From assembly GCA_045127455.1 (NCBI GenBank), contig JBGVQK010000086.1:488-64487 (forward strand): a stretch of 64,000 nucleotides of DNA. The letters run 5' to 3'. Under the pieces are notes generated by a model. The model made no database searches. It had not been told where the DNA came from and saw only the letters and a list, made by a program, of their open reading frames with translations. Source of the DNA: Eubacteriales bacterium. GTDB taxonomy: Bacteria > Bacillota > Clostridia > Oscillospirales > CAG-272. Shown here piece after piece: positions 2,734-60,187 of the stretch. The first letter of the stretch is position 1. Each line of letters opens with the position of its first letter. Position numbers and translations under genes: made by a program.

Positions 2734-2762
2734 ATTATATCCTTTTTGAGTGGATTTGTGAA
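2734..2762 (-). promoter_or_regulatory. sigma-A-like promoter of the small Cys-rich gene
   Basis: The minus strand reads TTCACA-17 nt-TATAAT about 65 nt upstream of the ATG at 2667. Confidence 0.45.
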
Positions 2763-2814
2763 TTACCAAAAAAACAAAATTTTGGCTATGTTTTTGCCCT
2801 CAAAAAAGAAAAAA

Positions 2815-2845
2815 GCATAGCCATTTTGACCCCAAAACGGCTATG
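2815..2845 (-). terminator. intrinsic terminator after the LuxR-type gene
   Basis: catagcc/ggctatg stem just downstream of the stop at 2859, followed on the minus strand by a U-rich run (A-run 2802-2814 on +). Confidence 0.55.
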
Positions 2846-2858
2846 TTTTTTTGTTTGA

Positions 2859-4094
2859 TTATAGGAATGCGGCAAACCGATCTCTGCCTACTCCCGTTTT
2901 ATCGGTGATGGCAACCAATGCCTGCTTGACACCCGCAAGCGACATATTCAGCTTTTCGGCAATTTCTTTATTGCTCAAACCAAAGGCGGCAAGCTTTGCG
3001 ATCTCGCGCTGACGCGCGGTCAACGAGGTAACGATGGTTTTGCCGCGGATAGTGCCCGAAAGCTTTGACCACCCCTCGTTATACACCTTGTAGAACTCTT
3101 TTACCCTTTGCCATGCCTTTTCATCAACTATGGAAAGTCTTTTTTCCATAAGCGTATCAAGCACGCGGCAGTATTCGGCAAGTGTACCGTACAGTTTATC
3201 GGGGAGAGCTAACGCAATTGCCTTGTCGATGTGATGTATTGCATCATCATCCTTACCGCAGTTATGATATATTGCGGCGCAGGTGAGTCTTAGATAGATC
3301 TCGGCCATAATTGTATTATTGGCACTTGCCCATGAGATCAGCGGCTCAACAGAAAACGATATAACCGACATAATGTAAAGCCCCTGCGTTCCATCCACTT
3401 TAACATGCCCCATCGCAACAGCGTAGCCAAGAGCATACAAATACTTGGCATAATATACCATAGCTGCCGGATAAGAGTCTTTATGGACAGGCTCAAAATT
3501 GCCTTTTTTGAACCACTCCGGAAAATTTTCTACATTATACACCATGGTATCAACGGCACTGATGGCAAGCTGCATAACGTCACGGTCAAGGTCGTTTTTA
3601 GCAGGGGCTTCGGCAATATGGATCTTTGCACGACGCCACATTTCAATATCCCCTTTCCAAATAGCACACATCGCCAAAAGCATACCTGCGGAAAGAACGG
3701 CATAAAAGCCCGAATGCTTGCCAAGAAGATAGTTTGCACTTTCATAGACCTTGTCTATCTCTCCTCGGGAATACGCAACCTCAGCCTCGAAAAGCACCTG
3801 CGCCTCGTGGTTGTATGATAACGATGCACCAACTCTATCGGCATCTCCGGGCGTTTTGTAAAGATCGCTCATATACAAAAACGGCGTTTTGCGAGGAAGA
3901 GGCATATCCGCATCCAACCCCATTCGCCCTGCCTTGGTCCTTCCGTCAGCGGGCTTTTGTGCGTCTGTGGGGATCATCCAATCGCGACCGAAGCGAACCG
4001 CTCCCGGGATCTTTCCCTCGGAACAAAGCAACTGAACACGGCGCACACCAATGCCCCATTTTGCGGCTATTTCATCTATTTTTAAGTATTCCAT
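2859..4094 (-). CDS. LuxR/GerE-family transcriptional regulator with an N-terminal excisionase/MerR-like HTH
   Basis: N-terminus IDEIAAKWGIGVRRVQLLCSEGKIPGA (HTH). C-terminus LTARQREIAKLAAFGLSNKEIAEKLNMSLAGVKQAL (LuxR-type HTH). Confidence 0.8.
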   Translation of the reverse strand: MEYLKIDEIAAKWGIGVRRVQLLCSEGKIPGAVRFGRDWMIPTDAQKPADGRTKAGRMGLDADMPLPRKTPFLYMSDLYKTPGDADRVGASLSYNHEAQVLFEAEVAYSRGEIDKVYESANYLLGKHSGFYAVLSAGMLLAMCAIWKGDIEMWRRAKIHIAEAPAKNDLDRDVMQLAISAVDTMVYNVENFPEWFKKGNFEPVHKDSYPAAMVYYAKYLYALGYAVAMGHVKVDGTQGLYIMSVISFSVEPLISWASANNTIMAEIYLRLTCAAIYHNCGKDDDAIHHIDKAIALALPDKLYGTLAEYCRVLDTLMEKRLSIVDEKAWQRVKEFYKVYNEGWSKLSGTIRGKTIVTSLTARQREIAKLAAFGLSNKEIAEKLNMSLAGVKQALVAITDKTGVGRDRFAAFL

Positions 4095-4252
4095 ACCACA
4101 CCGCCTCTTTAATAAATTTGTGGTTTTATTCGTTATAACGACTTATTATTGATCGTTGTAACGAAATATATTATAACATATGGGGGTGTTTTTGTCAAGA
4201 GGAATGCTAAAGAAGCTTTTGAAAATATTTTTAAGAAAATCGCAAAAACCTC

Positions 4253-4281
4253 TTGCAATTCCCCAAATAGTATGGTATAAT
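4253..4281 (+). promoter_or_regulatory. sigma-A promoter of tRNA-Val
   Basis: TTGCAA (4253-4258), 17-nt spacer, TATAAT (4276-4281), 12 nt before the tRNA 5-prime end. Confidence 0.7.
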
Positions 4282-4293
4282 ATACACCGTTAC

Positions 4294-4370
<77 letters not shown>

Positions 4371-4372
4371 AC

Positions 4373-4414
4373 AAAAACAGAACATTTGTCACCGACAAAT
4401 GTTCTGTTTTTGTT
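4373..4414 (+). terminator. intrinsic terminator after tRNA-Val
   Basis: Perfect 18-bp stem aaaaacagaacatttgtc / gacaaatgttctgttttt with a 3-nt loop, running into a T-run. Confidence 0.85.
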
Positions 4415-4417
4415 TAT

Positions 4418-4580
4418 CCAAGCCGCAGGCTTGGCATATCATCGCCACACGAAGTGCGGCGTATATCATCAAGGACGGCTCACCGCCCTTGTATCTCATC
4501 AGCCCCTTTGGGGCTGTATCTCTCCTGCGGCTTGCTGATATACCGCAACAGGTTGCGGATGATATACAATGCTTCGCATT
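4418..4580 (+). repeat. array of six short variable GC-rich hairpins separated by TATATCATC-like AT-rich spacers
   Basis: Hairpins include ccaagcc-gca-ggcttgg (4418-4434), cagcccc-ttt-ggggctg (4500-4516), ccgcaa-cagg-ttgcgg (4543-4558) and aatgc-ttc-gcatt (4568-4580). Spacers read catatcatc, gtatatcatc, gtatctcatc, gtatctctc, gatatac, gatgatatac. Confidence 0.6.
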
Positions 4581-4661
4581 GATAATTCCATTTGCACTCT
4601 ATGTTTGTACAAGCCACTTCTCACACCTTTTATCACGTTTAAGGCAATAAAAAGTAAGAGA

Positions 4662-4688
4662 AAGCGCGTCCTTGGCAAGGGCGCGCTT
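4662..4688 (-). terminator. terminator after the AraC-family gene
   Basis: aagcgcgtcc / gggcgcgctt stem 12 nt beyond the stop at 4700, with T-rich flanks on both strands. Confidence 0.5.
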
Positions 4689-4699
4689 TTGTTGTTCGT

Positions 4700-5431
4700 T
4701 TATTTTTCTGCGTTCTCATACCTCTTCATTGCCTTCCAGAAGCCGGAATAGGAGCGGTAGCCCACGTATTTGGCGATTTGCTCGAGAGATGCGTTTTCCG
4801 CTTGCATCAATTGGTTGGCGATGCGCATACGCACTGCAACGAGCTCCTCGCGGAAGCTATGCCCCGTATACTGCAAAACAAGGCGCTCGGCGTGCCTTTC
4901 GGAAATGTGAAGCTGCTCGGCAAGGTCGGAAAGATAAACGTCTTTATCGTAATTGAGAATAAAAAATTCGCTGATGAGGAAATTGTAATCCTTGATTTCG
5001 GTTACGGTATGGTGCTCTTTGTGATAACGGTTGCAAAAAAGGGGGATGTAGAGCGCGACGGTACTATAATTACCTGTGAGGTAACATTGCTGTATTTCTT
5101 CAAAAAAAGCCTTTGCCACTCCGTCAGCAATGGGATAGGTACGCAGTTCTTCGGCCATACAGTCGGTTTGAAATGCCGTGTGCAAGAGGTTTTCGTCCTG
5201 ATAGGTGCAGCAATGCATTACAGACGCAGGAAGCGTTATGACCGCAGGCCCGCTAAAGGCTACGGAATGATTGCCGATCAAAAACTCTGCCTTTCCCTTC
5301 CCCAGCACGTGCACCTCGGTATAATTATGCTTGTGCAAGGAGGTATCGGTTTTGGGAGAAACGTAAAAGCCATCCTGCAAAAATGCCTTATATTCCCTCT
5401 CTATCATTTTGAAAGATAATTCGTAATGCAT
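4700..5431 (-). CDS. AraC-family transcriptional regulator (cupin N-domain + AraC HTH)
   Basis: C-terminal LSDLAEQLHISERHAERLVLQYTGHSFREELVAVRMRIANQLM...IAKYVGYRSYSGFWKAMKR. Divergent from the aldolase gene. Confidence 0.85.
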   Translation of the reverse strand: MHYELSFKMIEREYKAFLQDGFYVSPKTDTSLHKHNYTEVHVLGKGKAEFLIGNHSVAFSGPAVITLPASVMHCCTYQDENLLHTAFQTDCMAEELRTYPIADGVAKAFFEEIQQCYLTGNYSTVALYIPLFCNRYHKEHHTVTEIKDYNFLISEFFILNYDKDVYLSDLAEQLHISERHAERLVLQYTGHSFREELVAVRMRIANQLMQAENASLEQIAKYVGYRSYSGFWKAMKRYENAEK

Positions 5432-5747
5432 AATGATTTCCTAACAAGACATCGAGATTTCATTTTTGTCGGGTAGGCTTATTGCAATACAGGACAAAAT
5501 GATGTATAATTATTGTAGCATACCGCGACCTGCTTGTCAAGCAGATTTTGTGCAAAAATTACGCGAATTGTTAAAAAAGAGCTTTACAGGACCCAAAACG
5601 CCAAAAAATGATTGTTTTGCGCGGTCGTGCAACAAGCGACTGCTACGCGACAAGTTTGAATGACGTCTTTGATTTTCGCCTGCGTCGCGAATGTCCGTTT
5701 GGTAAAGCCGTTATGATAGTGAACACAAGAGAAATGGAGAATGGAAA

Positions 5748-6629
5748 ATGATGAAATTTAGTGGCGTTATGCCCGCTTTGGTGTCCCCTTTGGATGCCAA
5801 CGAAAATATAAATGTTCCCGTACTGAAGCAACTTTTGACCGACCTTTTGGAGAAAGGCGCCGACGGGTTTTACCTGTGCGGTGCAACGGGTGAAGGCATT
5901 GCCATCGCCCCCGAGCAGCGTATGGTTCTCACGGAGGAAGCCATTAAAACCGTTGGCGGTCGCAAGCCCTGCATCGTTCAAGTGGCATCGGGCAACTTTG
6001 AGGATGCTATCCGCCTGGCGAAGCACGCCGAGCGGGTGGGAGCGGCGGCAATTTCGGCTACTCCTCCCCTATTCTTCTCTTATGACAAGGACGACGTTTA
6101 CAACTACTACAAAAAACTTGCAGACGCGGTGTCCATCCCGATGATGATCTATTACAATCCCGCCGCGGGCTTTCACATCAATGCCGACATTGCCGCAAAG
6201 ATGTTTGAAATCGACAACATAACTGCAATTAAGTGGACGAGCTCGGATTACTACCAGATGATGCGTCTTAAGGATATTACCAATGGTGAGATGAACATCA
6301 TCAACGGTCCCGACGAAATGCTTTTGATGGGGCTCTCGGCAGGTGCGGACGGCGGTATTGGAACGACCTACAACTTTATGTTCGATATCATTCGCGGCAT
6401 TTACGATAACTTTGTAAAAGGTGACATTAAGACCGCAAGAGAATATCAAACGCGTGCCATTCGCATCATTTCGGTGCTGCTGAATTATAAGATCATTCCT
6501 GCGGCAAAGGCAGTGCTCGAGGCACAGGGCTATGCCGTTGGCAACGCAACCTTCCCTATGAAGCGCTATTCCGATGAAGAAAAAGCGATAATTGTTGCAC
6601 AAATGAAAGAAGCAGGGTTAAAAATTTAA
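5748..6629 (+). CDS. DapA-family aldolase (dihydrodipicolinate synthase / N-acetylneuraminate lyase-like)
   Basis: GFYLCGATGEG, MMIYYNP, and AIKWTS carrying the Schiff-base Lys context. RBS GGAGAATGGAAA before ATGATG. Confidence 0.8.
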   Translation: MMKFSGVMPALVSPLDANENINVPVLKQLLTDLLEKGADGFYLCGATGEGIAIAPEQRMVLTEEAIKTVGGRKPCIVQVASGNFEDAIRLAKHAERVGAAAISATPPLFFSYDKDDVYNYYKKLADAVSIPMMIYYNPAAGFHINADIAAKMFEIDNITAIKWTSSDYYQMMRLKDITNGEMNIINGPDEMLLMGLSAGADGGIGTTYNFMFDIIRGIYDNFVKGDIKTAREYQTRAIRIISVLLNYKIIPAAKAVLEAQGYAVGNATFPMKRYSDEEKAIIVAQMKEAGLKI

Positions 6630-6639
6630 TACAAACAAC

Positions 6640-6671
6640 AAAAACGGAGCAACGCAAGTTACTCCGTTTTT
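6640..6671. terminator. bidirectional terminator between convergent genes
   Basis: aaaaacggag / ctccgttttt stem with a 12-nt loop, A/T runs on both sides, between the stops at 6629 and 6683. Confidence 0.75.
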
Positions 6672-6682
6672 GTGTTTATTTA

Positions 6683-8161
6683 TTACAGCAAGATACAAAT
6701 CAGCCCGTTGCTGCCCTCATTGATGATGCGCTCAAGCGTTTCGGAAAGCTTTTTGCGCGATTCCTCGGGCATATGCTCAAGCTTGTTATGGAGCCCCTCG
6801 TTGATAAGCTCGTAAAGCGATTTGCCAAACATATTTGAGCCCCAAATGCTCTTGGGATCTTCTTCAAATTCCTTGAGCAGGTAGCGCACCATATCCTCGG
6901 ATTGCTGCTCGGTTCCCACCATTGGGTTGATCTCGGCGGCGATGTTGGCGCGGATCATATGAACCGATTGCGCCGCTGCGCGGAGCTTGACGCCATAGCC
7001 GCCTGCCTGCTTGACGATCTGCGGTTCTTCGAGATGCAGATCCTCAACGTTGGGCATAACAATGCCGTATCCACGCTCGTTGACCTCTTCCAGCGCCTCG
7101 GCAACCTTATCGTACTTCTCTTTCATGACCGAAAGGTCACGCAAAAGCGAGATGAGCTCTTCCTCCCCGCTTACCGAAAAGCCTGTGAGCTCGCTGATAA
7201 CGTCGTAATAAAGTCCATCCTTCATACAAAGGGAAATGGTCGCCTTGCCCGTTCCAAGGTCCAAGACGTCGATGTTTGCGCGCTCAACGTACTCGTTGTC
7301 TGCCATATTCTCAAAGGCAGCTTTTACGTCGCCCGCCTTTTTGATGCTCTCAGCACAGCGGCAGACCGATGTGCGAACAGCCGCACGGATACGGTGATGC
7401 GTATCAAGGGCACGCATCCAAGCAGGGGTCTTAACGGTGATCTCGGTGACGGGAAATTCCTCAAGAACAAGCCCCAAAATGTGGCGAATGTCCTCGGCAT
7501 CCAGATCCAAGCAACTGACAAGCGCTACGGGAACACCGTATTTTTCCTCTAATTCGTAAGCGAGCGTGCGTGCGGCATCCCCCTCGGGGCGCGCAGAATT
7601 GAGAATGATGGCAAAGGGCTTGCCAAGTGCCTTCAGCTCCCCTACGATGCGCTCTTCTGCCTCTACGTAGGCCTCCCGCGCAATGTCACCGATAGTGCCG
7701 TCGGTTGTGATCAGCATACCAATGGTGGAGTGCTCGGTGATGACCTTGTGGGTGCCCATTTCTGCGGCTTCGGCAAACGGCATAGGCTCCTCACGCCAAG
7801 GGGTACGCACCATGCGCGGCTGACCGTTCTCGATCGTTCCCATCGCGTCGGGGATAAGATACCCAACGCAGTCAATCATGCGCACGCGCATTTGTGCGTT
7901 GTTATCCAAAATAACGGGTACGGCTTCCTCGGGTATAAACTTTGGCTCGGTCGTCATAACCGTTTTCCCTGCCGCCGACTGCGGAAGCTCGTCACGTGCA
8001 CGGTCGCGGGAGTAGCCCTCCCCAATGTTTGGAAGCACAACTGCCTCCATAAATCGTTTGATGAATGTGGATTTACCACTCCGAACAGGACCTACAACTC
8101 CGACGTAAATGTCTCCACCCGTCCGCTCGGCAATATCCGTATAAATCGAATGCTCAGGCAT
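6683..8161 (-). CDS. spoIVA: stage IV sporulation protein A (spore coat morphogenetic ATPase)
   Basis: MPEHSIYTDIAERTGGDIYVGVVGPVRSGKSTFIKRFME...ELPQSAAGKTVMTTEPKF matches the SpoIVA N-terminus and Walker A. The track ORF is extended by 90 aa. The ATG at 8161 follows GGGAGGTTTTGAA. Confidence 0.93.
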   Translation of the reverse strand: MPEHSIYTDIAERTGGDIYVGVVGPVRSGKSTFIKRFMEAVVLPNIGEGYSRDRARDELPQSAAGKTVMTTEPKFIPEEAVPVILDNNAQMRVRMIDCVGYLIPDAMGTIENGQPRMVRTPWREEPMPFAEAAEMGTHKVITEHSTIGMLITTDGTIGDIAREAYVEAEERIVGELKALGKPFAIILNSARPEGDAARTLAYELEEKYGVPVALVSCLDLDAEDIRHILGLVLEEFPVTEITVKTPAWMRALDTHHRIRAAVRTSVCRCAESIKKAGDVKAAFENMADNEYVERANIDVLDLGTGKATISLCMKDGLYYDVISELTGFSVSGEEELISLLRDLSVMKEKYDKVAEALEEVNERGYGIVMPNVEDLHLEEPQIVKQAGGYGVKLRAAAQSVHMIRANIAAEINPMVGTEQQSEDMVRYLLKEFEEDPKSIWGSNMFGKSLYELINEGLHNKLEHMPEESRKKLSETLERIINEGSNGLICILL

Positions 8162-49171: not shown

Positions 49172-51076
49172 ATGAAAAACGCACTTTACCGACAGCTTTG
49201 TGTTTTTTTAATTCTGCTTGGTCTTGCTATTTGTTTGACAGCTTGTAACAACAAAAACAGTAATGAGGAGGAAACCACCATGCCAAACGAAAACGAACAA
49301 ACTACCCCGATGAACACAACCGAGGCAACCACCCCCGAACAAACGACCCCTGAAGAAGTCACTCCCGAAATTCCCCCGGAGCATGAACACGTTATGGGTG
49401 ATGAATATGCTTGCACCGTTTGCGGCTTGAGCTTTTTGACCCCCGTTGAAGAAGCAATTGAGATTGGTATGTCCTTTGAAAAAGGCAAATACGGCGATGA
49501 ATATTATTACGTTAAGCTCACCCTTGATAAGCAGGCCAACTCCGACGGCTTTGCAAGAGCAACGATTGCGGAAGGTATTTACGTCAGCATTGCAGGTGGA
49601 TATTTGAAGGATGAGGATCTTGGCGCCATTCAAGTTGGTGACACCGTTGTTTTTAAGGCAAAGATCGGTGCTGTCAACTCTTCCCTCACAACCGGCGGCA
49701 AGGAAATGCGACTGTTTGAGATTGCAGCTTATGAGATTGTGAAGTTTGCCAATCCCCCAAAATATGAGGTTTTGGTAGAAAAAGAATTGCTCGTTCCCGC
49801 TAACGGCACAAACGTTGCCGAAAAACGCTTGCAATATTATTTGGATGCGGAAGGCACCGTGCGCAAAGAAATCAAGGAATTTCAATCACAGGACGACACT
49901 GCAGACTATCGCAAATATCGCTTTAGCTATGACAACGGCAAAACTTGGACGGAATGGATCCGTGAGCCATTGCCTGCACGCGAAAAGGTTGGCAATGACG
50001 AGATCGACGAAAATCTCGGTTATCAAAACGCACAACACGTATACAATCCCATTGTCGGTCACTTTGTGAGCCTGCAATGTCAGTTCATTTACATTGACGG
50101 TTACGCCGCAACCGAGGCACACTATTGGGCAGGCTATACCCGCCCCATGCACAGCTTTTTGATGATTGAAGATGCCGACGGCACGGCTCACGAGCGCGTA
50201 CTGGTGAAATATGAGGAAGGTGCCGATTACAGCCGTGGAAATTATCGCTCAACCAACTATTTAACAACCAATATTTCCCGTGGCTCTGCCCTGATCGTTC
50301 TTTCAAACGGCGATATTTTGTTCAATCTTTGCATTCCCGTAAACACAGCTTGCAAGCTTGCAGGCTTGAATTTGCAAGATGTATTCCCCACCACGGGTGG
50401 ACTTGGACACGCTTGGGCGCTTTTGGTGGCTCGCGGTGTTTGGAATGCCAATACCCAACAATATGACATTACCTATTCCGAACCTATCATTATGGATGAT
50501 ACGCTCTCGACACGCGGACTTTCGGAGCCAATGTTTGCGGAACTGCCCGACGGAAGAATCTTTTGCATCTTCCGTACCTCTACCGATAAAGTTTCGGGTT
50601 GGACGTGCCGCCTTGATGCCAATGCTCCTGCTTGCAAATATTACGTTATTTCCGAAGACGGCGGCAAGACCTTCTCCGAGCCCAAGCCTTGGTGCTATGA
50701 GAACGGTGAAATCGTTTATTCCCCCGCATCTATTTGCCAAGTGGTAAAAAGCGAGGTTAATGACAAGCTTTATTGGATCGGCAATGCTTGCACAAAGGGA
50801 GAAATCAACGGCGCATACCCCCGCTTCCCTCTCCTTATCATTGAAATCGATCAAGAAACAGGCTTGGCAATTCGCAACAGCATGGTACTGATTGACACGC
50901 GCCGCACAGGCGAGAGTGAAAAGGTGCAGCTTTCCAACTTCTGCATTTTGGAAGACCGCGAGGCAGGCACCTTGGAAATCTATCTCTCAAAGTTGGGACA
51001 ATTCTCCGGCAAACCCACCTACGAGTGCGAAACCTGGAAATACACCGTGTATCTTAACAACGACGAAGAAAAATAA
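49172..51076 (+). CDS. BNR/Asp-box repeat lipoprotein (sialidase-like beta-propeller suspected)
   Basis: Lipobox ICLTAC, a Thr/Pro/Glu-rich linker, and Asp-boxes SYDNGKTW and SEDGGKTF. Confidence 0.65.
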   Translation: MKNALYRQLCVFLILLGLAICLTACNNKNSNEEETTMPNENEQTTPMNTTEATTPEQTTPEEVTPEIPPEHEHVMGDEYACTVCGLSFLTPVEEAIEIGMSFEKGKYGDEYYYVKLTLDKQANSDGFARATIAEGIYVSIAGGYLKDEDLGAIQVGDTVVFKAKIGAVNSSLTTGGKEMRLFEIAAYEIVKFANPPKYEVLVEKELLVPANGTNVAEKRLQYYLDAEGTVRKEIKEFQSQDDTADYRKYRFSYDNGKTWTEWIREPLPAREKVGNDEIDENLGYQNAQHVYNPIVGHFVSLQCQFIYIDGYAATEAHYWAGYTRPMHSFLMIEDADGTAHERVLVKYEEGADYSRGNYRSTNYLTTNISRGSALIVLSNGDILFNLCIPVNTACKLAGLNLQDVFPTTGGLGHAWALLVARGVWNANTQQYDITYSEPIIMDDTLSTRGLSEPMFAELPDGRIFCIFRTSTDKVSGWTCRLDANAPACKYYVISEDGGKTFSEPKPWCYENGEIVYSPASICQVVKSEVNDKLYWIGNACTKGEINGAYPRFPLLIIEIDQETGLAIRNSMVLIDTRRTGESEKVQLSNFCILEDREAGTLEIYLSKLGQFSGKPTYECETWKYTVYLNNDEEK

Positions 51077-51137
51077 AATAAGATAGGGATAGCAGTTTTG
51101 CACAAGTCCGTTAAAAACGGACAATTGAAAAAAAGGG

Positions 51138-51174
51138 CCTCCTATGGTAGAATATAAACATCTACCATAGGAGG
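51138..51174 (+). promoter_or_regulatory. 14-bp hairpin sequestering the orfA ribosome-binding site
   Basis: cctcctatggtaga / tctaccataggagg. The right arm contains the GGAGG located 8 nt before ATG 51183. Confidence 0.6.
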
Positions 51175-51182
51175 AATTTTTT

Positions 51183-51518
51183 ATGTCACGAGAATATAGG
51201 CACATACAAGAATATGAAAAAGAGATATTGGAGTTGAGAGAAAAAGGACATTGTCATCAAGAAATAGGAGACAAATTAGGGTTTACCAAGAAACAAGTAA
51301 CAAAGTTTTTTGAGAGATACCATAAAAAGCAACGCAGAATAGCCGCAGGAATAACCCTCAAGAAGAAAGGCAGACCTGCAAGGAATAGTATCGTCACCGA
51401 GGAAGATAAGCTTGCAGATCTGCGGTACAAGCTTGCCCGTAAAGATGCACGGATAAAGCAATTAGAAATGGAAAATGAACTGATGCGGGATTTTCTCTCG
51501 CTCACGGAAAGGAAGTGA
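51183..51518 (+). CDS. IS3-family transposase OrfA (HTH)
   Basis: 111 aa with an HTH (ILELREKGHCHQEIGDKLGFTKKQV) and a leucine-zipper-like C-terminus. Confidence 0.85.
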   Translation: MSREYRHIQEYEKEILELREKGHCHQEIGDKLGFTKKQVTKFFERYHKKQRRIAAGITLKKKGRPARNSIVTEEDKLADLRYKLARKDARIKQLEMENELMRDFLSLTERK

Positions 51519-52369
51519 GAACAAGTGTAAAATACATGGTAATCTATCGTCACAAGGATAAATATGGGATAAGCGAAATGTGCCGGTTCTTTGAGGTATC
51601 AAGAAGTGGCTACTATGACTATGTTAAAAGGATGGATATTCCTGCGTGGGATCTTCCTCTTGCCGAGAAGATCCGAGAGTGTCAGGAACACAGCCATAGC
51701 ACTTACGGCTATCGTAGGGTTCAGATATGGCTTGAAAGACAAGGGATTCATAAAAACCCCAAGACTGTACTACGTGTAATGCAGAAATACAACCTTCTTT
51801 CTGTTGTAAGGAGAAAGAAATACCGTAACTATGGCGAGTATTTACATAGATATCCAAACCTGCTTAACAGAGACTTTCACGCAGATCGTCCCAATCAAAA
51901 GTGGGTAACGGATATTTCGTATATCAAAACAGGGCAAGGTATACTGTATCTTTCTGTTATTCGTGACCTCTACGACAACAGCATCGTCGCCTACAAAACT
52001 GGTACTGAACAGAATATTAACCTCGTTCTCTCTACCATCAGAGCAGCCAAAAGAAAGGAAAAGGTCACCGCAGAGCTGCAACTCCACAGTGACCAAGGCT
52101 TTCAATACACATCGCAAGCATATTTTAAGCTAACACAATCATATCACATAACTCCGTCAATGTCAAGACGTGGAAACCCATATGATAACGCTTTAGCTGA
52201 AAATTTTTTCTCAATCCTCAAAACCGAGTGCATTTACCGCGCAAAAATCCGCACCTATGCGGCGGCGCGCCTCCTCATAGGTGCATACATCCACTTTTAC
52301 AACAACGAACGTATTCAACTCAAAACAAAACTGACACCACTCGAAAAGCGATGTCAGTTCGTTGCTTAA
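51515..52369 (+). CDS. IS3-family transposase OrfB (DDE integrase core)
   Basis: NQKWVTDISY, HSDQGFQYTS, GNPYDNALAENFFSILKTE. The -1 frame relative to orfA is open from 51479. Confidence 0.88.
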   Translation: MRTSVKYMVIYRHKDKYGISEMCRFFEVSRSGYYDYVKRMDIPAWDLPLAEKIRECQEHSHSTYGYRRVQIWLERQGIHKNPKTVLRVMQKYNLLSVVRRKKYRNYGEYLHRYPNLLNRDFHADRPNQKWVTDISYIKTGQGILYLSVIRDLYDNSIVAYKTGTEQNINLVLSTIRAAKRKEKVTAELQLHSDQGFQYTSQAYFKLTQSYHITPSMSRRGNPYDNALAENFFSILKTECIYRAKIRTYAAARLLIGAYIHFYNNERIQLKTKLTPLEKRCQFVA

Positions 52370-53050: not shown

Positions 53051-53100
53051 GATAAAATGAAAAAGCACGCTCTTTTTATTGCGAGCACGAAACATTTTCT

Positions 53101-53345
53101 TGCGCGGGCTCCTTCCGTCAGCCTACGGCTGCCACCTCCCTCCCGGAGGGAGGCTATCTTTTCATTCTCCTTTGTTGTTGTAGCATAACCTCTTTTTTGT
53201 TGGAAAGTCAAGATATTTTTCGCTTTGCAAAAGCGGGCGATTCGTGAATCGCCCCTACGGAGTATATCCAACACATTGTAGGGGCGACCATTGGTCGCCC
53301 GCCTTTGAAAACGGCAACCGTTTATTTTCAGGGCGTCAAGGACGT
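53101..53345 (+). repeat. composite GC-rich hairpin repeat region (copy B of the dispersed family plus three further hairpins)
   Basis: gcgggctccttcc...cctccctc-ccg-gagggagg (53135-53153). Further hairpins gggcgattc-gtg-aatcgccc, ggggcgacca-ttggtcgccc and gggcgtc-aag-gacgtccc. Confidence 0.65.
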
Positions 53346-53374: not shown

Positions 53375-53405
53375 CACCGAGAGCAATTGTTTGGTGCTCT
53401 CGGCG
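53375..53405. terminator. bidirectional terminator ending the eight-gene operon
   Basis: caccgagagca / tgctctcggcg stem with T-runs on both strands, 26 nt beyond the stop at 53431. Confidence 0.75.
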
Positions 53406-53430: not shown

Positions 53431-53631
53431 TTAGGCGAAAAAGTCGTCCACCTTGCAGCCGATGGTCTGGGCGAGGAGTGGCAAAACGGCAATATCGGGA
53501 TAGCTTTCTTCCCTTTCCCACTTGGAAATGGATTGCGAGGTTACGCCAATCAGGTCGGCAATTTGTTGTTGTGTGACTTTATTCTCGTTGCGATACGTTT
53601 TAAGCTTTTCTGAAATAATAATTTTCTTCAT
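53431..53631 (-). CDS. small XRE-family HTH protein (66 aa)
   Basis: VTQQQIADLIGVTSQSISKWEREESYPDIAVLPLLAQ. ATG 53631 is 1 nt after the upstream stop (TTG 53646 is the alternative). Confidence 0.75.
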   Translation of the reverse strand: MKKIIISEKLKTYRNENKVTQQQIADLIGVTSQSISKWEREESYPDIAVLPLLAQTIGCKVDDFFA

Positions 53632-53632
53632 T

Positions 53633-54109
53633 TTAATTTTGTCCAAGTCTTATTCTTTCACTTGCCCACGCCTTACGGACTGCCGTGTGATGCCACAGGT
53701 TGATAAGAGGAAACGCGAGAATTCCAACGGGAAATACCCATTTAGCGTATGCAACAATAAAGATTAACGGTACATAAAGAATGGTGAAAATGATGCACTC
53801 AGTGCGGAACTGCTTTGATTTTGCGAGTGCTTTGAAATCGGCTTTGCGGTCGTACTTCTCTGCTCCGAGGGTGTTCAAAAATTCTCTGCGTGCTTCGGCA
53901 TCTCTTGCGTGAGGAATGCAGATTGCAAGCACGTTGAACGCCATTGTACCAAGGCGCACAAACACATTGGTTACATAGTCACCGGCAATGGGATTGCCCA
54001 TAATGGCGTTGAAGATGGTTGCAAAAATGGTAACTGCCAGCACGCGTAACAGTATAGAGCCGCCAAACATAATGGCTAAATTGATAAAAAACAGTTTTGC
54101 AGGTTTCAT
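53633..54109 (-). CDS. polytopic membrane protein, unknown function (158 aa)
   Basis: Four hydrophobic segments. The ATG directly abuts the stop of the upstream paralogue (TAAATG). Confidence 0.65.
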   Translation of the reverse strand: MKPAKLFFINLAIMFGGSILLRVLAVTIFATIFNAIMGNPIAGDYVTNVFVRLGTMAFNVLAICIPHARDAEARREFLNTLGAEKYDRKADFKALAKSKQFRTECIIFTILYVPLIFIVAYAKWVFPVGILAFPLINLWHHTAVRKAWASERIRLGQN

Positions 54110-54901
54110 TTAATAATCCTCCTTATGTCCAAGTGATTCGAAGTGAGCGTGCAGCTCGTGTTTGAGACGTTTTGTTAAAACCTTCCATCTACATACAATA
54201 ACATTTCCACTGATACATTCGCCTGTGATGCTGTGCATTATCTGTCCTTTCATAAAATATGCATCGGCATAAGAGTGATCGAGCACCAAGCAATGATATT
54301 CTGTATTTCGGGATGGAAATTCGGGAATGGAATATGCGCTGAAATGCTTGTAGTCAATTTTGCGAGGCCCGCGACGCAAACCAAAGCCTTCTAAATCTCC
54401 GGGGAGCGCCATGTGCATGCGGTATTCACGGTCATTTAGCAACAAAAACATTTTAAACACCGGGAGTGGTACATCTACAAAATGAAGGAGCAACTTTTTT
54501 CCTTCCATTTGAATTTCGATGTCAGCACACTCATCCACGCCTTTTAAAGATGCAAACAGTGAGCGACCAAAACGGCAAGTATAGCCTTTTTTGCGGCAAG
54601 TACACCATATCGCTAAATATTTTAACGGTCTACCAATGAAAAACAGAAGTATCGGTATGACACCGTCAACGATAACCCACACAAGGAACAAAAAAACAAA
54701 GCAACCAAGTAAAATGATACATCCCCATTTTAAGCCGCGATCTAAAACGTCATTCGTAATTTTGGGGAGAACCTTATCAAAAAACACATCAAATCGAAAT
54801 TGAGAAATGAAGATAGCTATCAGTATGCCAACAAACAACAATATGGGGATGCCAATGAGGAGCTTCCCTTTTGTTTTATTTGAAAGTTTTTTTCTTTTCA
54901 C
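54110..54901 (-). CDS. membrane-anchored protein, paralogue 3 of an unrecognised family (263 aa)
   Basis: GTG start. MKRKKLSNKTKGK, two TM segments, then a conserved soluble domain (CRF.R..FASL.GV, FLL.ND.EY.MH, GEC.SGN..VC) shared with 54949..55737 and 56987..57766. Confidence 0.7.
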   Translation of the reverse strand: MKRKKLSNKTKGKLLIGIPILLFVGILIAIFISQFRFDVFFDKVLPKITNDVLDRGLKWGCIILLGCFVFLFLVWVIVDGVIPILLFFIGRPLKYLAIWCTCRKKGYTCRFGRSLFASLKGVDECADIEIQMEGKKLLLHFVDVPLPVFKMFLLLNDREYRMHMALPGDLEGFGLRRGPRKIDYKHFSAYSIPEFPSRNTEYHCLVLDHSYADAYFMKGQIMHSITGECISGNVIVCRWKVLTKRLKHELHAHFESLGHKEDY

Positions 54902-54948
54902 TTGGAACCATCCTTTCTTTCAAGAATGTGTAAAATTCCTATTTCAGT

Positions 54949-55737
54949 TCATTTAATAGGTGTAAAAATTTCATTATTGAGGCGTTTTCTCAAGGTGTTT
55001 AGATTACATACGGTAATATTACCTACCACACATTCATCTATCACGTTAAGTACTACACTGTCCTTTGTAAATTTAGCAACGGCATAAGAAGGATCGACTA
55101 CCAAATAGTGATATTCTATTCCTTTTGTCGGAAATTCGGGAATCGAATACGTGTTGAACATATCTTCAACAATCTCGCGCTCTTTCGGAAGCCGACCCTC
55201 CAAAAAGCCCCGTTTTTTATTCCGCACAGATTTGTGCATACGATACTCACAATCATTCACCAATAAAAAAGTTCTAAACCATGGGAATGGAATCCCCACA
55301 AAATGAACGTGTAATGTTTTTTGATTGATTCCAATTTCAATATGGCTATCCCTTTTCACACCGAGCAAAGATGCAAAAGGTGCGCGATGAAAACGACAAG
55401 AATGTCCATTTTTGCGGCAGAGCTGCCATATTTTGAAATATGCAAAAAGTCTCCCGAAGAAGAATCCCAATAGCGGCAAAACGATAGTCGCTAGGAGTAT
55501 TATTAAGACTAACACAATCAAAGTGGCTATAATAACAAGAAACGCCCGATATGTATCACTTTCTTTATACAAAGAAAACCATTTTTCCACACTATCTACA
55601 TAGTTATCAAAACCACCGATTATGGAAATGAGACGGGCAAAAATGAAGCCCACGATTAAAACAACAACTCCTATTATAACAGATGCTATAATAAGCTTCC
55701 CTTTTGTTTTATTGGAAAGTTTTTTTCTTCTTTTCAT
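54949..55737 (-). CDS. membrane-anchored protein, paralogue 2 of the unrecognised family (262 aa)
   Basis: MKRRKKLSNKTKGK, two TM segments, and the same conserved motifs. The ATG overlaps the upstream stop (ATGA). Confidence 0.7.
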   Translation of the reverse strand: MKRRKKLSNKTKGKLIIASVIIGVVVLIVGFIFARLISIIGGFDNYVDSVEKWFSLYKESDTYRAFLVIIATLIVLVLIILLATIVLPLLGFFFGRLFAYFKIWQLCRKNGHSCRFHRAPFASLLGVKRDSHIEIGINQKTLHVHFVGIPFPWFRTFLLVNDCEYRMHKSVRNKKRGFLEGRLPKEREIVEDMFNTYSIPEFPTKGIEYHYLVVDPSYAVAKFTKDSVVLNVIDECVVGNITVCNLNTLRKRLNNEIFTPIK

Positions 55738-56369
55738 TTTGCATCGTCCTTTCTTTCAAAGACGTACCAATAGGGTTCGATGCCGCACAGTCTTTTGACG
55801 ATGTTGTCAACAGTAATATCATTGATATCAACCGGAATCTCTGATGTAAAAAATTCACTTTTCAAAAAAGAAAGCTCTTTTTTGGCTCCTGAAACCGTTA
55901 TTGACTTTTCTATCAGTGATATGTCGGTTCCGGCGACAATAGTGTAATTTTCCTTGATGATATGTTTTTGTATCAAATCGAATCTCCAACAAGTTAAGTT
56001 CGCATTTTCTTTAGCAAACTCTACAAATGTAACAGTATAAATCGGGCTGCGCGTTTTGCTGTCCTTTCCTTTTTTGATCGGCTGCGCTTGAAGATCAAAG
56101 CCCTGTATGCATTTTTTCAAAACATCGTTCTCTATATTTTCAGCAACCCATTTATTGAGCACAGAATCAATTTCGGAGTCTTTGATTTTTTGCGTTTTCA
56201 AAAAAATCAAGGCAGAAACAGCGACAGCAAAAATGGGAGTCCCGATTGGTATGCCGTGCCACGCAAATGTGATAATACCTGCTGCAATAATTGCCACTCC
56301 TAAAAGAATGAACTCTAAAACGGTCCAGTTTTTTTGTTCAAAATATTTTTGCGCCAAATCCTTTTTCAT
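55734..56369 (-). CDS. membrane protein, unknown function (211 aa), with a C-terminal tail copied from the MerR-like gene
   Basis: Two TM segments near the N-terminus. It ends GIEPYWYVFERKDDAK, versus GMEPYWYVFERKDEAK at the end of 57763..58875. Confidence 0.65.
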   Translation of the reverse strand: MKKDLAQKYFEQKNWTVLEFILLGVAIIAAGIITFAWHGIPIGTPIFAVAVSALIFLKTQKIKDSEIDSVLNKWVAENIENDVLKKCIQGFDLQAQPIKKGKDSKTRSPIYTVTFVEFAKENANLTCWRFDLIQKHIIKENYTIVAGTDISLIEKSITVSGAKKELSFLKSEFFTSEIPVDINDITVDNIVKRLCGIEPYWYVFERKDDAK

Positions 56370-56390
56370 AATACTGCTCCTCTCTTTGAT

Positions 56391-56963
56391 TTAACCGATC
56401 ACTAACGAATGTCCGCAGTCCTCACAATGAGAGGCGGTTTTGTCGTTATTCGTTCCGCAAACAGAACATTGAACCATTTTATCGGATGATTTTGGCAGAA
56501 CAACGGTTTGCATAGAGCCGTACAAATGAAAAACACGGTCTCCTACTTTATAAGTCTCTAAATTTTGTGCCAATTTGGTACTTCTTTCGTACGCCTTTTT
56601 GCGTACTACAATACCGTTCTCTTTTTCAACATGCAAAAAAATTGTGTTTTTCATATATAGGTTTTCTCTCGTGGGGCGACCGTGATACTCATTATCGACT
56701 GTGGTGGCAATTTCCAACTTTTGAACTGTACCGACATACGTTTGATCGATCAGTTTGAACGGCACACCCGTTACAGCAAACGGAACAAGCATTATCATTG
56801 TATACACAATTACCTTAACGATTTCTTTGTCAATTGGCAGAATAACGTCGCCCCAAAAGATCAATGCTATGGAAAAAGCAACGAGCAACAGCACGCACGG
56901 AACAACTCTTTTGAGAGCGGATTTAATTGCAAAATTTTTTAGATCTTTTGGTAATGTTTTCAT
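56391..56963 (-). CDS. membrane protein with a C-terminal zinc ribbon, unknown function (190 aa)
   Basis: Two TM segments, a soluble middle part, and CSVCGTNNDKTASHCEDCGH. RBS AGAGGAA. Confidence 0.65.
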   Translation of the reverse strand: MKTLPKDLKNFAIKSALKRVVPCVLLLVAFSIALIFWGDVILPIDKEIVKVIVYTMIMLVPFAVTGVPFKLIDQTYVGTVQKLEIATTVDNEYHGRPTRENLYMKNTIFLHVEKENGIVVRKKAYERSTKLAQNLETYKVGDRVFHLYGSMQTVVLPKSSDKMVQCSVCGTNNDKTASHCEDCGHSLVIG

Positions 56964-56986
56964 TTTGATATTCCTCTCTGAAAAGT

Positions 56987-57766
56987 TTAGTCGATATTGG
57001 AATGGAGCTTACTTTTGAGATGTTTTTTCAAAACCTTCATCCTGCATACGGTAATATTCCCCGAGGTACACTCACCTGTTATGCTCAGCATTTTTTTGTT
57101 TTCGATGAAATATGCGTTTGCATAAGAGGGAGAAATGACAAGATAATGACGTTCTGTTTCGTTTGACAAGAGCGCAGGCATAGTGTATACCGTATAATTA
57201 TCGGGATCCATAACCTGTTCACTCGGTCGAATAAAGCCACCAAAGCCGCGCAATTTTCCGGGGATAGACTTATGCATACAGTATTCACGGTCATTTGCCA
57301 ATAAAAACATTCTCAAAAACGGGAACGGGATATCGATCAAGTGAATGTGCAAGGTTTCACCCTTTATTTTTATTTCTATATCAGCCTTTTCACTTACACC
57401 TATCAAGGAAGCAAACATCGGGCGGCGAAAGCGGCAAGAATACTTTTTTTGAATGCAAATACACCATATTTTGAAATATGTAAACGGCTTTGCAATAAAA
57501 AAACAAAGCATGGGTAATATTTGATTGACGAAAAGAACCAAGAAAGCAAACTCTGCTATAACAAGAGCCACCGTTGCAATGGTAGCAAGAATTTCAAAGC
57601 TTTTATCGCTCAATTCGTTAAAAAGCTTTTTCCCTATCGAAGTGTTAAAGAAAGCAGAAGTGACAATAGTGATGCAAAATGCCAAAAACAAACCGATAAC
57701 AATGATAGAAGCAACGAGAATTAGAATTTTCCCTTTTGTTTGGTTTGAAATTTTTCTTCTTTTCAT
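56987..57766 (-). CDS. membrane-anchored protein, paralogue 1 of the unrecognised family (259 aa)
   Basis: MKRRKISNQTKGK, two TM segments, and the same conserved motifs. The ATG overlaps the MerR-like stop (ATGA). Confidence 0.7.
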   Translation of the reverse strand: MKRRKISNQTKGKILILVASIIVIGLFLAFCITIVTSAFFNTSIGKKLFNELSDKSFEILATIATVALVIAEFAFLVLFVNQILPMLCFFIAKPFTYFKIWCICIQKKYSCRFRRPMFASLIGVSEKADIEIKIKGETLHIHLIDIPFPFLRMFLLANDREYCMHKSIPGKLRGFGGFIRPSEQVMDPDNYTVYTMPALLSNETERHYLVISPSYANAYFIENKKMLSITGECTSGNITVCRMKVLKKHLKSKLHSNID

Positions 57767-58875
57767 TTTGCTTCGTCCTTTCTTTCAAAGACGTACCAAT
57801 AAGGTTCCATGCCGCCAAAGGCATAATCGCCCGATTTATGCTCTACAAGGAGATAGTCTTTGCCCTCAAAGCTTTTGATGATGTATTTCTCTGCCGTCAT
57901 GTGGGTGCGGTTGAGGACGAGCCCCTTGGTATAGTTGACTCCCCAACTCATTTTTTTGCCGTTCGCTTCGGAACGGGTAAATTTGAGACAGATTCCGCGC
58001 GGCAAAAATTGCATTTCCACAATGCTCAAACGTTTTTTGGGAGAGCATTGATGTGCCGGATCAAAATCTTCGGCGCGGTGAACAAAATCCACAACGCTCC
58101 ACGTGCCACTAACCGCGGGATCCTCTACAAAGGGGTAATCGACCTTGTCGATATGCGGGCGCATTTGATCCTCACTGTAAGCAATGGTATCGACCTGACG
58201 ATACAGAACGGGGAGCGCTTGGTCGATTGCAAGGTCGTTATCCTTCATAAAATAGATGATCATATAGTGTTCGCCATTTTGGCGGACGGTTCGGTATGGG
58301 TTTGCAACCGAGGAGCCGTGCTTGCCCGACATGGTGTAAAGGATTCCTTTTGTCCAAAAGTAGGACCACACGTTTGCTCCGCCCGGCATAAAGATGATCT
58401 CCTTGAAGATGCGTTCCTCGGGCGCGATTTCAACTGCCGAAGCAAAGTCGTTTTCATCGCGCAGCATTCCGCAAAGCTCCCATTTGCCAACCACCTCGGG
58501 GTGATTGGTGAAAGGAATATTGACGATGCTTGGCAATGGCTTTCCGCCCTCATCGTGCGCAAACATCCCGTTTATGGTTTGTACCTGACCTTGAATTTGT
58601 TGAACCGAGGAAAGAAGTGTTCCCTTTTTCTTTTTGAGCATTTCCTTTTCTTCTTCCTCGGTGGCAGCCAGTAATTTTGTAATTTCTTGCAGCGAGAAGC
58701 CGAGGTCTTTATAAAAGATGAGCTTTTTGTATTTTTTTACAGCCTCGGGGGAGTAAAAACGATACCCTGTTACTTCGTCGACAAAGTCCGCTTTGAGGAC
58801 TCCCGCATCATCGTAATAGCGCAACGTTCTTGCACTGGTGTCGCAAATTTTTGCAAAGTCACCTATTTTTAGCAT
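57763..58875 (-). CDS. MerR-family transcriptional regulator with a ~300-aa C-terminal domain of unknown type
   Basis: MLKIGDFAKICDTSARTLRYYDDAGVLKADFVDEVTGYRFYSPEAVKKYKKLIFYKDLGFSLQEI. ATG 58875 follows GGAGG-N7. The track start 58899 lies inside the -10 box. Confidence 0.85.
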   Translation of the reverse strand: MLKIGDFAKICDTSARTLRYYDDAGVLKADFVDEVTGYRFYSPEAVKKYKKLIFYKDLGFSLQEITKLLAATEEEEKEMLKKKKGTLLSSVQQIQGQVQTINGMFAHDEGGKPLPSIVNIPFTNHPEVVGKWELCGMLRDENDFASAVEIAPEERIFKEIIFMPGGANVWSYFWTKGILYTMSGKHGSSVANPYRTVRQNGEHYMIIYFMKDNDLAIDQALPVLYRQVDTIAYSEDQMRPHIDKVDYPFVEDPAVSGTWSVVDFVHRAEDFDPAHQCSPKKRLSIVEMQFLPRGICLKFTRSEANGKKMSWGVNYTKGLVLNRTHMTAEKYIIKSFEGKDYLLVEHKSGDYAFGGMEPYWYVFERKDEAK

Positions 58876-58897
58876 TGCACCGCCTCCTTTTTCCTCC

Positions 58898-58928
58898 ATT
58901 ATAACATTACAGTTAACTGTAAAGTCAA
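58898..58928 (-). promoter_or_regulatory. MerR-type promoter/operator (19-bp spacer containing a perfect palindrome)
   Basis: The minus strand reads TTGACT (58923-58928), spacer ttacagttaactgtaatgt (19 nt), TATAAT (58898-58903). TTACAGTTAACTGTAA (58907-58922) is a perfect 16-bp palindrome. Confidence 0.8.
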
Positions 58929-59103
58929 GACCTTTTTGGAAAAAAATTCTTTTTTCTTTGCCTTTTTTTGAGCTTTTGTGATACTTTTGATTGCTATTTG
59001 GTATCTATTAATATAATTATATCATCATTTGATTGTTTTGTCAATACCTTTTATGATATTTTTACAAAAAAATTTTGCAAGTGTAAACAATTTTGCATTT
59101 ATA

Positions 59104-59132
59104 TTGACATTCTCACTCAAATCATCTATAAT
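59104..59132 (+). promoter_or_regulatory. sigma-A promoter of the flavodoxin gene
   Basis: TTGACA, 17 nt, TATAAT, about 30 nt before ATG 59162. Confidence 0.6.
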
Positions 59133-59784: not shown

Positions 59785-59860
59785 GACCCATTAGCTCAGA
59801 TGGCAGAGCACATGACTTTTAATCATGGTGTCCGGAGTTCGACTCTCCGATGGGTCACCA
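59785..59860 (+). tRNA. tRNA-Lys (anticodon UUU)
   Basis: Acceptor gacccat/atgggtc, D arm gctc-agatggc-agagc, anticodon stem catga/tcatg with loop ctTTTaa (59818-59820), T arm cggag-ttcgact-ctccg, encoded CCA. Confidence 0.9.
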
Positions 59861-59898: not shown

Positions 59899-59995
59899 GT
59901 TAACTCCACGAGTCAAACTCCGCCGATTTTCGCTTGCGAAAATCGGCATAACCTGCGCCTTTGTGGCTTTGGCATAATGCTGAATAAAAGCGCAG

Positions 59996-60178
59996 GTTTG
60001 AGTTCTGACTCTCCGATAAACCACCGCGTGTTTGAGTTCTGACTCTCCGATAGAATTGAATATATTCTCTCATAATAACGCGGGCTCCCTCCACCGCTAT
60101 CGCGGTCCCCCTCCCTCCCGGAGGGAGGCTTATATAATACGCTTGCACTACGCGTGTTTGCTTTCTGACTCTCCGATA
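59996..60178 (+). repeat. three direct copies of a 23-nt echo of the tRNA-Lys T-arm/acceptor 3-prime end
   Basis: gtttgagttctgactctccgata at 59996-60018 and 60030-60052, and gtttgctttctgactctccgata at 60156-60178. Compare the tRNA segment gagttcgactctccgat (59835-59851). Confidence 0.7.
60078..60130 (+). repeat. GC-rich hairpin repeat, copy C of the dispersed family
   Basis: cgcgggctccctcc, accgc-tatc-gcggt, then cctccctcc-c-ggagggagg (60110-60128). Same orientation as copy B at 53101-53160. Confidence 0.65.
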
Positions 60179-60187
60179 TAAATAAAA

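Follow-up and report, generated by a model that had tools for sequence, protein, structure and literature searches.

We describe an eight-gene operon on the minus strand of a 64-kb stretch of DNA (64,000 nucleotides (nt) of contig JBGVQK010000086.1, hereafter the window, to which coordinates refer) from an uncultured gut Oscillospiraceae bacterium. The operon is real and conserved, and appears to work like a multidrug MerR regulon of the BmrR/Mta type with novel cargo. Its first gene encodes a MerR-family regulator with an undescribed sensor domain, a duplicated GxW beta-barrel without a Pfam model, and at least four of the cargo families (F0, F1, F2 and F5) are likewise undescribed. From the regulator and the gene contexts of its relatives, we give an even chance to the operon being an inducible response to membrane-damaging lipophilic compounds, i.e., a membrane or xenobiotic stress response. 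No evidence to date calls for a mechanism beyond known biology.

The original prediction for this DNA had described eight co-directional minus-strand genes separated by overlaps or short gaps, and all of the open reading frames (ORFs) and gaps were confirmed. The operon and its signals are as follows.

59016-59044, minus strand: P2, a canonical sigma-70 promoter (TTGACA, 17 nt, TGnTATAAT), about 90 nt upstream of P1.
58898-58928, minus strand: P1, a MerR-type promoter (-35 TTGACT at 58928-58923, 19-nt spacer, -10 TATAAT at 58903-58898).
57763-58875, minus strand: merR, MerR-family activator, 370 amino acids (aa), with ATG at 58875 and the ribosome-binding site (RBS) AAAGGAGG upstream.
56987-57766, minus strand: par1 (paralogue 1, family F0), 259 aa, in ATGA overlap with merR; basic N-terminal peptide, two transmembrane segments and a beta-rich domain predicted to be cytoplasmic.
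56391-56963, minus strand: p190 (family F2), with two transmembrane segments, a small beta domain and a C-terminal CxxC...CxxC zinc ribbon.
55734-56369, minus strand: p211 (family F5), a two-transmembrane hairpin and a domain predicted to be cytoplasmic.
54949-55737, minus strand: par2 (paralogue 2, family F0), 262 aa, in ATGA overlap with p211.
54110-54901, minus strand: par3 (paralogue 3, family F0), 263 aa, with a GTG start; the F0 member modelled with AlphaFold2 (AF2).
53633-54109, minus strand: p158 (family F1), polytopic, with about four transmembrane segments.
53431-53631, minus strand: XRE-family helix-turn-helix (HTH) protein (family F4), 66 aa, the last gene of the operon.
About 53375-53405, both strands: intrinsic terminator hairpin with an 8-bp stem, CCGAGAGC/GCTCTCGG, and T-runs on both strands.

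From merR to the XRE gene, the successive gaps are -4, 23, 21, -4, 47, 0 and 1 nt. A clear Shine-Dalgarno sequence precedes seven of the eight genes, the exception being the XRE gene, which is probably translated by coupling, and the RBS and junction sequence TTGAAAGAAAGGA is common to all three paralogues. For merR, a mechanical call gave a longer ORF of 378 aa, the start of which falls within the -10 box. We infer that merR and the seven downstream genes are co-transcribed. As predicted, six of the eight products are membrane-anchored, with transmembrane segments detected by hydropathy; since these products combine positive N-termini with even numbers of transmembrane segments, their soluble domains should face the cytoplasm.

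The regulatory part of the model is carried by the promoter. The spacer of P1 holds a perfect 16-nt palindrome, TTACAGTTAACTGTAA, at 58907-58922 (16/16 positions), with the half-sites TTACAGTT and AACTGTAA. We compared the 90 nt upstream of the merR start at 32 loci (loci are named here with the prefix L) encoding full-length relatives of the regulator with 28-96% identity. At 32 of 32, TTGAC[TAC], a 19-nt spacer and a TATAAT-like -10 box were located 20-25 nt before the start codon, so that the single MerR-type promoter expected at the operon head was not only recovered but found to be conserved. The spacer dyad is also present at every locus except L030, in which the right half-site is degenerate (8/16). 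Further, the half-sites covary, as in TTACAG-TTAA-CTGTAA, TTATAG-TTAA-CTATAA and TTACAG-TATA-CTGTAA, and in a group of MerR relatives of 30% identity the operator reads CTTCCC-TTAA-GGGTAG. This compensatory change across loci amounts to phylogenetic footprinting of the putative operator and is the strongest evidence in the analysis; as judged from these alignments, MerR control of the operon is very probable. The operator is present only once in the window and, therefore, within the window the regulon is this operon.

P2 matches the sigma-70 consensus at 12 of 12 positions, has an extended -10 box and is kept in 11 of 12 aligned loci, the exception being L018, which has a different upstream region; its probable role is basal transcription of merR. 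The merR-flavodoxin intergenic region contains two perfect sigma-70 promoters back to back, P2 itself and another on the plus strand at 59104-59132, and the motif TCAAAT[C/G]AT directly before TATAAT is common to both, which may represent a shared regulatory site. At the other end of the operon, the bidirectional terminator that had been proposed is indeed present; it was read directly from the sequence, since its 11-nt loop caused the automatic scan to miss it. Rfam detected only two tRNAs in the window, with no riboswitch or small RNA in the leader.

The regulator consists of an HTH and coiled coil (residues 1-105), a low-confidence linker and tandem GxW beta-barrels at approximately residues 125-240 and 250-370. 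It is assigned to the MerR family because the HTH, the coiled-coil helix and the 19-nt-spacer dyad promoter were each tested for and found. Pfam matched MerR_1 (46.1 bits, cut-off 21.6) and MerR (36.4 bits, cut-off 28.2), with nothing past residue ~103 and no lipocalin match. Sequence-profile matches in the PDB (EcmrR, Mta, BrlR, BmrR, TipA and SkgA) were confined to residues 1-125, with none for the remaining 250 residues; these alignments reach residues 105-125 of MerR proteins, which fits a coiled-coil dimerisation helix and a predicted dimer. In the AF2 model, with a predicted local distance difference test score (pLDDT) of 81, a helix spans residues 73-105 and two beta-rich barrels are formed. 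Foldseek aligned this model with MtaN, BmrR and EcmrR at about 1e-6, MtaN reaching a target-normalised template modelling score (TM-score) of 0.83-0.88 and a root-mean-square deviation of 1.8-2.0.

Each barrel is opened by an invariant GxW (G130/W132 and G257/W259), GxW being the lipocalin signature, and the two barrels are an internal duplication (hhalign 95%, E 3.4e-8). The best non-MerR fold matches were beta-lactoglobulin (E 2.6e-3, probability 0.99, query-normalised TM-score 0.19) and the tandem-barrel protein BFA1. Together, the GxW barrels, their duplication and these matches make a lipocalin-like sensor for hydrophobic ligands plausible at the level of structural models. Full-length relatives of the regulator fall into at least 315 clusters. 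Membership of the GyrI-like (SHS2) or TipAS subfamilies was ruled out, the effector domain consisting of two beta-barrels with no Pfam or PDB profile match in that part of the protein.

With the multidrug MerR activators BmrR, Mta, TipAL, EcmrR and BrlR, the regulator shares the HTH/coiled-coil N-terminus, both by sequence and by fold, a 19-nt spacer with a palindromic operator and a large C-terminal effector domain; in addition, its distant relatives of the same architecture control drug-modifying enzymes. It differs in that the effector is a duplicated GxW barrel rather than a GyrI-like or TipAS-like domain, in that merR is the first gene of its own operon instead of being divergent or separate, and in that the cargo includes neither an efflux pump nor a recognisable resistance enzyme. 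Separately, a 22-nt inverted match (91% complementary) between the coding sequences of par2 (55376-55397) and merR (58447-58468) may be due to chance.

The products other than the regulator had been described as belonging to no known family, and no convincing match for the cargo was obtained in Pfam, NCBIfam, PADLOC, PHROGs or the PDB. The cargo families F0, F1, F2 and F5 were seen only in uncultured Oscillospiraceae/Eubacteriales. The profile searches, structure prediction with Foldseek and PADLOC run that had been proposed along with that claim returned no confident match outside the HTH and the MerR N-terminus. For the cargo proteins, Pfam, NCBIfam, PADLOC and PHROGs gave only HTH domains and a weak zinc ribbon, whilst in PADLOC-DB v2 the sole matches were to HTH domains (mad1, the RmrA N-terminus, capH and control proteins), with nothing for F0, F1 or F2; p211 gave only a 14.5-bit SduA match. 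A single superfamily for the cargo was not supported, the profile-profile comparison of F0 with F8 (another cassette family, see below) being weak (21%, E 0.001) and other pairs negative.

Family F0 comprises 52 clusters at 90% identity, its representatives number 71 among 1.84 billion, and in reference genomes it occurs only in metagenome-assembled genomes of uncultured Oscillospiraceae/Eubacteriales. The three paralogues of the window are 40-44% identical to each other, in contrast to 84-89% with close orthologues elsewhere (89% for par2 and its L009 orthologue). The AF2 model of par3 (pLDDT 78.5, 80-92 in the soluble domain) shows a long helix formed by the second transmembrane segment and a stalk, followed by approximately 11 strands. 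The N-terminal 13-residue basic peptide, MKRKKLSNKTKGK, is the most conserved element of the family (84% mean pairwise identity), compared with 61-64% for the soluble domain and 31-38% for the transmembrane segments and outer loop. The motif blocks first noticed in the soluble domain are present in all three paralogues, although only some of their residues stay invariant in the wider family.

Regarding the remaining cargo, p190 has four invariant zinc-ribbon Cys residues, an invariant GDRVFHLYG motif and weak Pfam zinc-ribbon matches. Its family, F2, contains 59 clusters, a member of which is named 'zinc ribbon domain-containing protein' in one source, and a profile search of the PDB returned generic zinc ribbons only. 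It is the commonest partner of this MerR family, co-occurring with MerR relatives down to 44% identity. The p158 protein, with a conserved C-terminus (...NLWHHTAV.K.WASER), usually follows an F0 gene; neither p158 nor p211 had an informative match in Pfam, NCBIfam, PADLOC or PHROGs. The XRE protein matches Pfam HTH_3 with 51 bits; an XRE gene also closes the operon in L019 and L023, and XRE-TPR fusions occur in L006 and L032. These fusions, of 310-360 aa (L006, 11565-12497; L032, a 360-aa ORF after 3293), resemble RRNPP-type peptide-sensing regulators.

The gene contexts of relatives bear on function. At L038-L044 and L052, in low-GC organisms, MerR relatives of 335 aa and ~30% identity share the tandem-barrel architecture and the 19-nt-spacer promoter; they head genes for an APH phosphotransferase, four GNATs, an ICMT/PEMT-like methyltransferase, a P-loop kinase and an S41 peptidase, which is a typical xenobiotic or antibiotic response set. 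MerR relatives of 45-50% identity head genes for an esterase-like lipoprotein (F6, weak matches) and an HExxH lipoprotein (F9) together with p190. The L107 operon (2565-6591) encodes a DUF1836 HTH protein, an NfeD-like transmembrane protein, a 466-aa Band_7 flotillin-like protein, an F0 homologue (E 1.6e-29 against the F0 profile) and a p190 homologue, the last two genes being overlapping and translationally coupled. The DUF1836 protein has a near-threshold MerR_1 match, and DUF1836 is classed in the Pfam HTH clan (PMC3146951). Finally, five F0 members (P0189, P0205, P0206, P0223 and P0224) carry a 105-residue N-terminal helical extension with HAAS-like features, for which the PDB gave no meaningful match, and an extended F0 gene at L108 (1020-2087) follows a PadR gene at a distance of 2 nt. 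An envelope-stress network has been described that includes HAAS-PadR dyads, flotillin/YuaF-type operons and zinc-ribbon membrane proteins (PMC11237479).

Likeness to that network is partial. Through L107, where F0 and p190 homologues share one operon with Band_7 and NfeD-like genes, the window operon resembles flotillin/NfeD (FloT-YuaF) operons, and it resembles PspA-YdjGHI in that YdjG, like p190, is a zinc ribbon on a membrane protein (PMC11237479) and in its predicted sub-membrane location. It differs from flotillin and PspA operons in having no Band_7, NfeD, PspA or TPM, in the single-locus nature of the link and in that no homology to YdjG or YdjH was detected. Distant F0 relatives with the HAAS-like module directly downstream of PadR reproduce the arrangement of HAAS-PadR dyads (PMC11237479), whereas the paralogues of the window carry no HAAS but only the 13-residue basic peptide, their regulator is a MerR and not a PadR, and the F0 extensions show no evident GxP motif such as has been described for HAAS. 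The window operon as a catalogued defence system, a HAAS-PadR dyad or a flotillin/PSP operon was ruled out, the defining components not having been found.

The co-directional genes downstream of each MerR relative were clustered, which gave the following cargo orders.

Window operon: F0 F2 F5 F0 F0 F1 XRE.
L022: F0 F0 F2 F1 F5.
L019: F10 F11 F0 F0 F2 F1 XRE.
L006: F0 F1 XRE-TPR.
L014: F7 F8 F2.
L031: F6 F9 F2.
L032: F5 F2 F23 XRE-TPR.

The original prediction had treated the eight genes as one system; this did not hold, since cassette order and copy number vary among relatives. By comparison of these loci, the eight genes are not a fixed unit and appear as one arrangement from a pool of cassette families varying in number and order. 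The synteny comparison that had been suggested thus revealed a conserved chromosomal slot with variable content: several species-level relatives have genes for an RlmA-like methyltransferase, GT2 and a flavodoxin on one side and for DUF5662 on the other, and in L006-L008 the array is at a different location. In L009, from a close relative, the array occupies this same site and includes a gene (6536-8125) for a 529-aa protein with a MutS domain V ATPase.

A 65-nt direct repeat, 95% identical, is shared by the merR 3' end/par1 start (57751-57815) and the p211 3' end/par2 start (55722-55786). The last ~15 residues of p211 copy the tail of MerR, forming a foreign C-terminal tail, PYWYVFERKDDAK, and the F5 orthologues in L009 and L022 are without it. 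The repeat explains this chimeric tail and is evidence of recent recombination between cassette junctions. The cargo had also been called AT-rich. Its GC fraction (0.34-0.40 across 54.5-58.0 kb) is indeed below that of most flanking windows (0.45-0.54), but the sensor-coding part of merR is like the flanks (0.51), and low values also occur outside the operon, in the IS3 element described below and the flavodoxin intergenic region (0.39-0.43).

In the model that we propose, a MerR dimer would occupy the palindrome within the overlong 19-nt spacer of P1, with P2 upstream giving basal MerR. Upon binding of a lipophilic small molecule by the C-terminal tandem lipocalin-like barrels, MerR would realign the -35 and -10 boxes, by analogy with BmrR, Mta and EcmrR, and a single transcript would cover merR and the seven downstream genes, making the regulon self-activating. 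The induced membrane-anchored products (three F0 proteins, p190, p211 and p158), with their conserved parts facing the cytoplasm, might then assemble at the inner face of the membrane and protect, repair or reorganise it when membrane-active compounds attack, candidates being bile acids, unsaturated fatty acids, plant phenolics, ionophores and antibiotics. The terminal XRE protein could act in feedback or as a second output of the regulation. The nature of the ligand, co-transcription, the cytoplasmic topology and the protective function are the presumptive parts of this model.

The membrane-stress interpretation draws on the multidrug-type N-terminus of MerR, the flotillin and PadR contexts and the xenobiotic-type gene sets. 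In this respect, the signal-triggered membrane module suggested by the original prediction stands as the best reading, with drug or envelope stress favoured, but the phage stress and immunity-like array also suggested are less favoured. Several observations weigh against membrane stress. The lipocalin-like match is of modest strength, and the drug-modifying regulons belong to MerR relatives that are only 30% identical and may sense other ligands. Recurrence of the flotillin link was sought and not found, leaving L107, whose NfeD match is sub-threshold, as its one instance; of the distant p190 relatives, one stands alone among housekeeping genes and another is near BlaR/BlaI-like genes. The Pfam HAAS matches of the F0 extension are likewise sub-threshold and limited to two of the five members (16 bits vs. 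a cut-off of 27). According to Pfam, the window operon encodes no PspA, PspC, LiaF/Toastrack or Band_7, and no Band_7 homologue is present anywhere in the window. Lastly, fast turnover of cassettes, an expanded set of paralogues and AT-rich cargo characterise conflict loci (those for defence or immunity) more often than they do housekeeping stress responses.

We considered three other explanations. According to the first, which we regard as unlikely, the operon is mainly a signalling module, in which F0, and perhaps p190 and p211, act as membrane sensors or tethers that modulate MerR or XRE, like the transmembrane part of HAAS for PadR, rather than a set of protective effectors. This would fit the sensor position of F0 in the fusions with an N-terminal HAAS-like module behind PadR, the fact that the most conserved part of F0 is a short cytoplasmic N-terminal peptide located where HAAS sits in those fusions, and the variable transmembrane segments and outer loop, which suggest diversified inputs; moreover, an HTH protein ends the operon and is TPR-fused in L006 and L032. 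However, MerR has a large ligand-binding domain of its own, three sensor paralogues controlled by the very regulator that they would modulate would be unusual, and HAAS detection does not reach the threshold.

The second explanation concerns phage defence and involves the neighbourhood, which had been described as accessory. The features named were found:

51183-52369: IS3-family element with HTH orfA and rve orfB in overlapping frames, located beyond DUF5662.
59785-59860: tRNA-Lys.

The IS3 element is an insertion separate from the operon, and a 22-nt hairpin lies directly upstream of it, at 51130-51182. Three partial copies of the tRNA-Lys 3' end, GAGTTC(T)GACTCTCCGAT, are located at 59991-60186, 3' of the tRNA and away from the operon; they bracket only ~330 nt, with the operon outside, and were probably left by earlier integration events. 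A GC-rich hairpin element of ~55 nt, CGCGGGCTCC...CCTCCCTCCCGGAGGGAGGCT, has exactly two copies in the 64 kb (53095-53155 and 60078-60130), which, with their segments 53135-53153 and 60110-60128 (0 expected by chance), flank the operon, the flavodoxin gene and the tRNA segment. The copy on the right is intergenic and conserved in L003, L004 and L020, and the element may be REP-like or a terminator. The framing of the region as an island failed on synteny, repeat geometry and this conserved hairpin. A tRNA-Lys-integrated island was rejected, as the repeats lie on the far side of the tRNA, no integrase is present and gene order is conserved in relatives, and so were the GC-rich hairpins as element boundaries, given the conservation of the right-hand copy. 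Searches of viral contigs, phage records and plasmids recovered no homologue, whether of F0 or of the other cargo families, and a phage or plasmid origin was rejected on that basis. Further out, a 634-aa protein with a lipoprotein-like signal and a sub-threshold BNR/Asp-box match (49172-51076, plus strand) may be a sialidase-like beta-propeller, apparently unrelated to the operon.

It is clearly improbable that the operon is an anti-phage or abortive-infection array in which F0 proteins are membrane-tethered PD-(D/E)xK-like nucleases or membrane disruptors held off by MerR or XRE. In both the PDB and the viral BFVD library, the top Foldseek matches of the F0 model were PD-(D/E)xK types (Hjc, RecU, the R2 endonuclease domain, VRR-NUC and restriction enzymes), and invariant acidic, His and Cys residues (E129, H163, C229 and C237) occur within the close F0 family. 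Cassette turnover, paralogue expansion, AT-rich cargo, the nearby IS3 and tRNA-Lys remnants and the MutS_V ATPase of the L009 array point in the same direction. Nevertheless, all of these fold matches were non-significant (best E 0.053 in the PDB and 0.016 in the viral library, query-normalised TM-score <=0.24), with low-rmsd (root-mean-square deviation) alignments spanning 50-70 columns of a domain that, with its 11 strands, is much more beta-rich than those nucleases; a D...(D/E)xK motif, their catalytic signature, is not present in F0, and a sequence-profile search of the PDB with F0 gave no match. The four residues are replaced in more distant members. Likewise, PADLOC and PHROGs matched nothing beyond HTH domains, the neighbours are housekeeping and not defence genes, and elsewhere F0 and F2 occur with flotillin and PadR rather than in defence islands. 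The PD-(D/E)xK nuclease fold in F0 is thus an unproven, model-based lead rather than an assignment.

Least probable of the three, and in our estimation very unlikely, is an immunity-like array of small membrane proteins that neutralise membrane-targeting bacteriocins or toxins of competitors, one specificity per paralogue. Consistent with it are several divergent paralogues per genome (40-44%), each with close orthologues elsewhere (84-89%), variable transmembrane and outer-loop regions, a copy number differing between genomes and a polytopic partner that often follows an F0-like gene (F0-F1, F8 after F7, F11 after F10). On the other hand, none of the loci examined had a bacteriocin, toxin, ABC exporter or secretion gene within or close to it; proteins that recognise an external toxin would not be expected to have their conserved parts in the cytoplasm, as is predicted here; and the F0-F8 homology is weak (hhalign 21%). 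The remaining probability is reserved for an explanation outside those listed.

Returning to the membrane-stress interpretation, a wider reading is possible, albeit doubtful. F0, F1, F2 and F5 may belong to an unrecognised, cassette-shuffled sub-membrane stress system of Clostridia that differs from Psp, Lia and flotillin while relying on the same one-component regulators (MerR with a tandem-calycin sensor, DUF1836 and PadR-HAAS). F0 would then be a new membrane-proximal cytoplasmic domain for sensing or repairing membrane damage, and it might bind metal or descend from a nuclease fold.

Oscillospiraceae are abundant, mostly uncultured anaerobes of the gut and rumen, and little has been learned about how they withstand bile acids, fatty acids, plant toxins, ionophores and antibiotics. 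The locus offers a testable regulatory handle on this question, namely a covarying operator together with a new tandem beta-barrel sensor, and its contextual links join MerR, DUF1836-flotillin and PadR-HAAS modules. It also illustrates clearly how cassettes can be shuffled when conserved gene junctions recombine. Were the ligand and the role of F0 and p190 to be established, the system would represent a new branch of bacterial envelope-stress biology and a potential biosensor scaffold.

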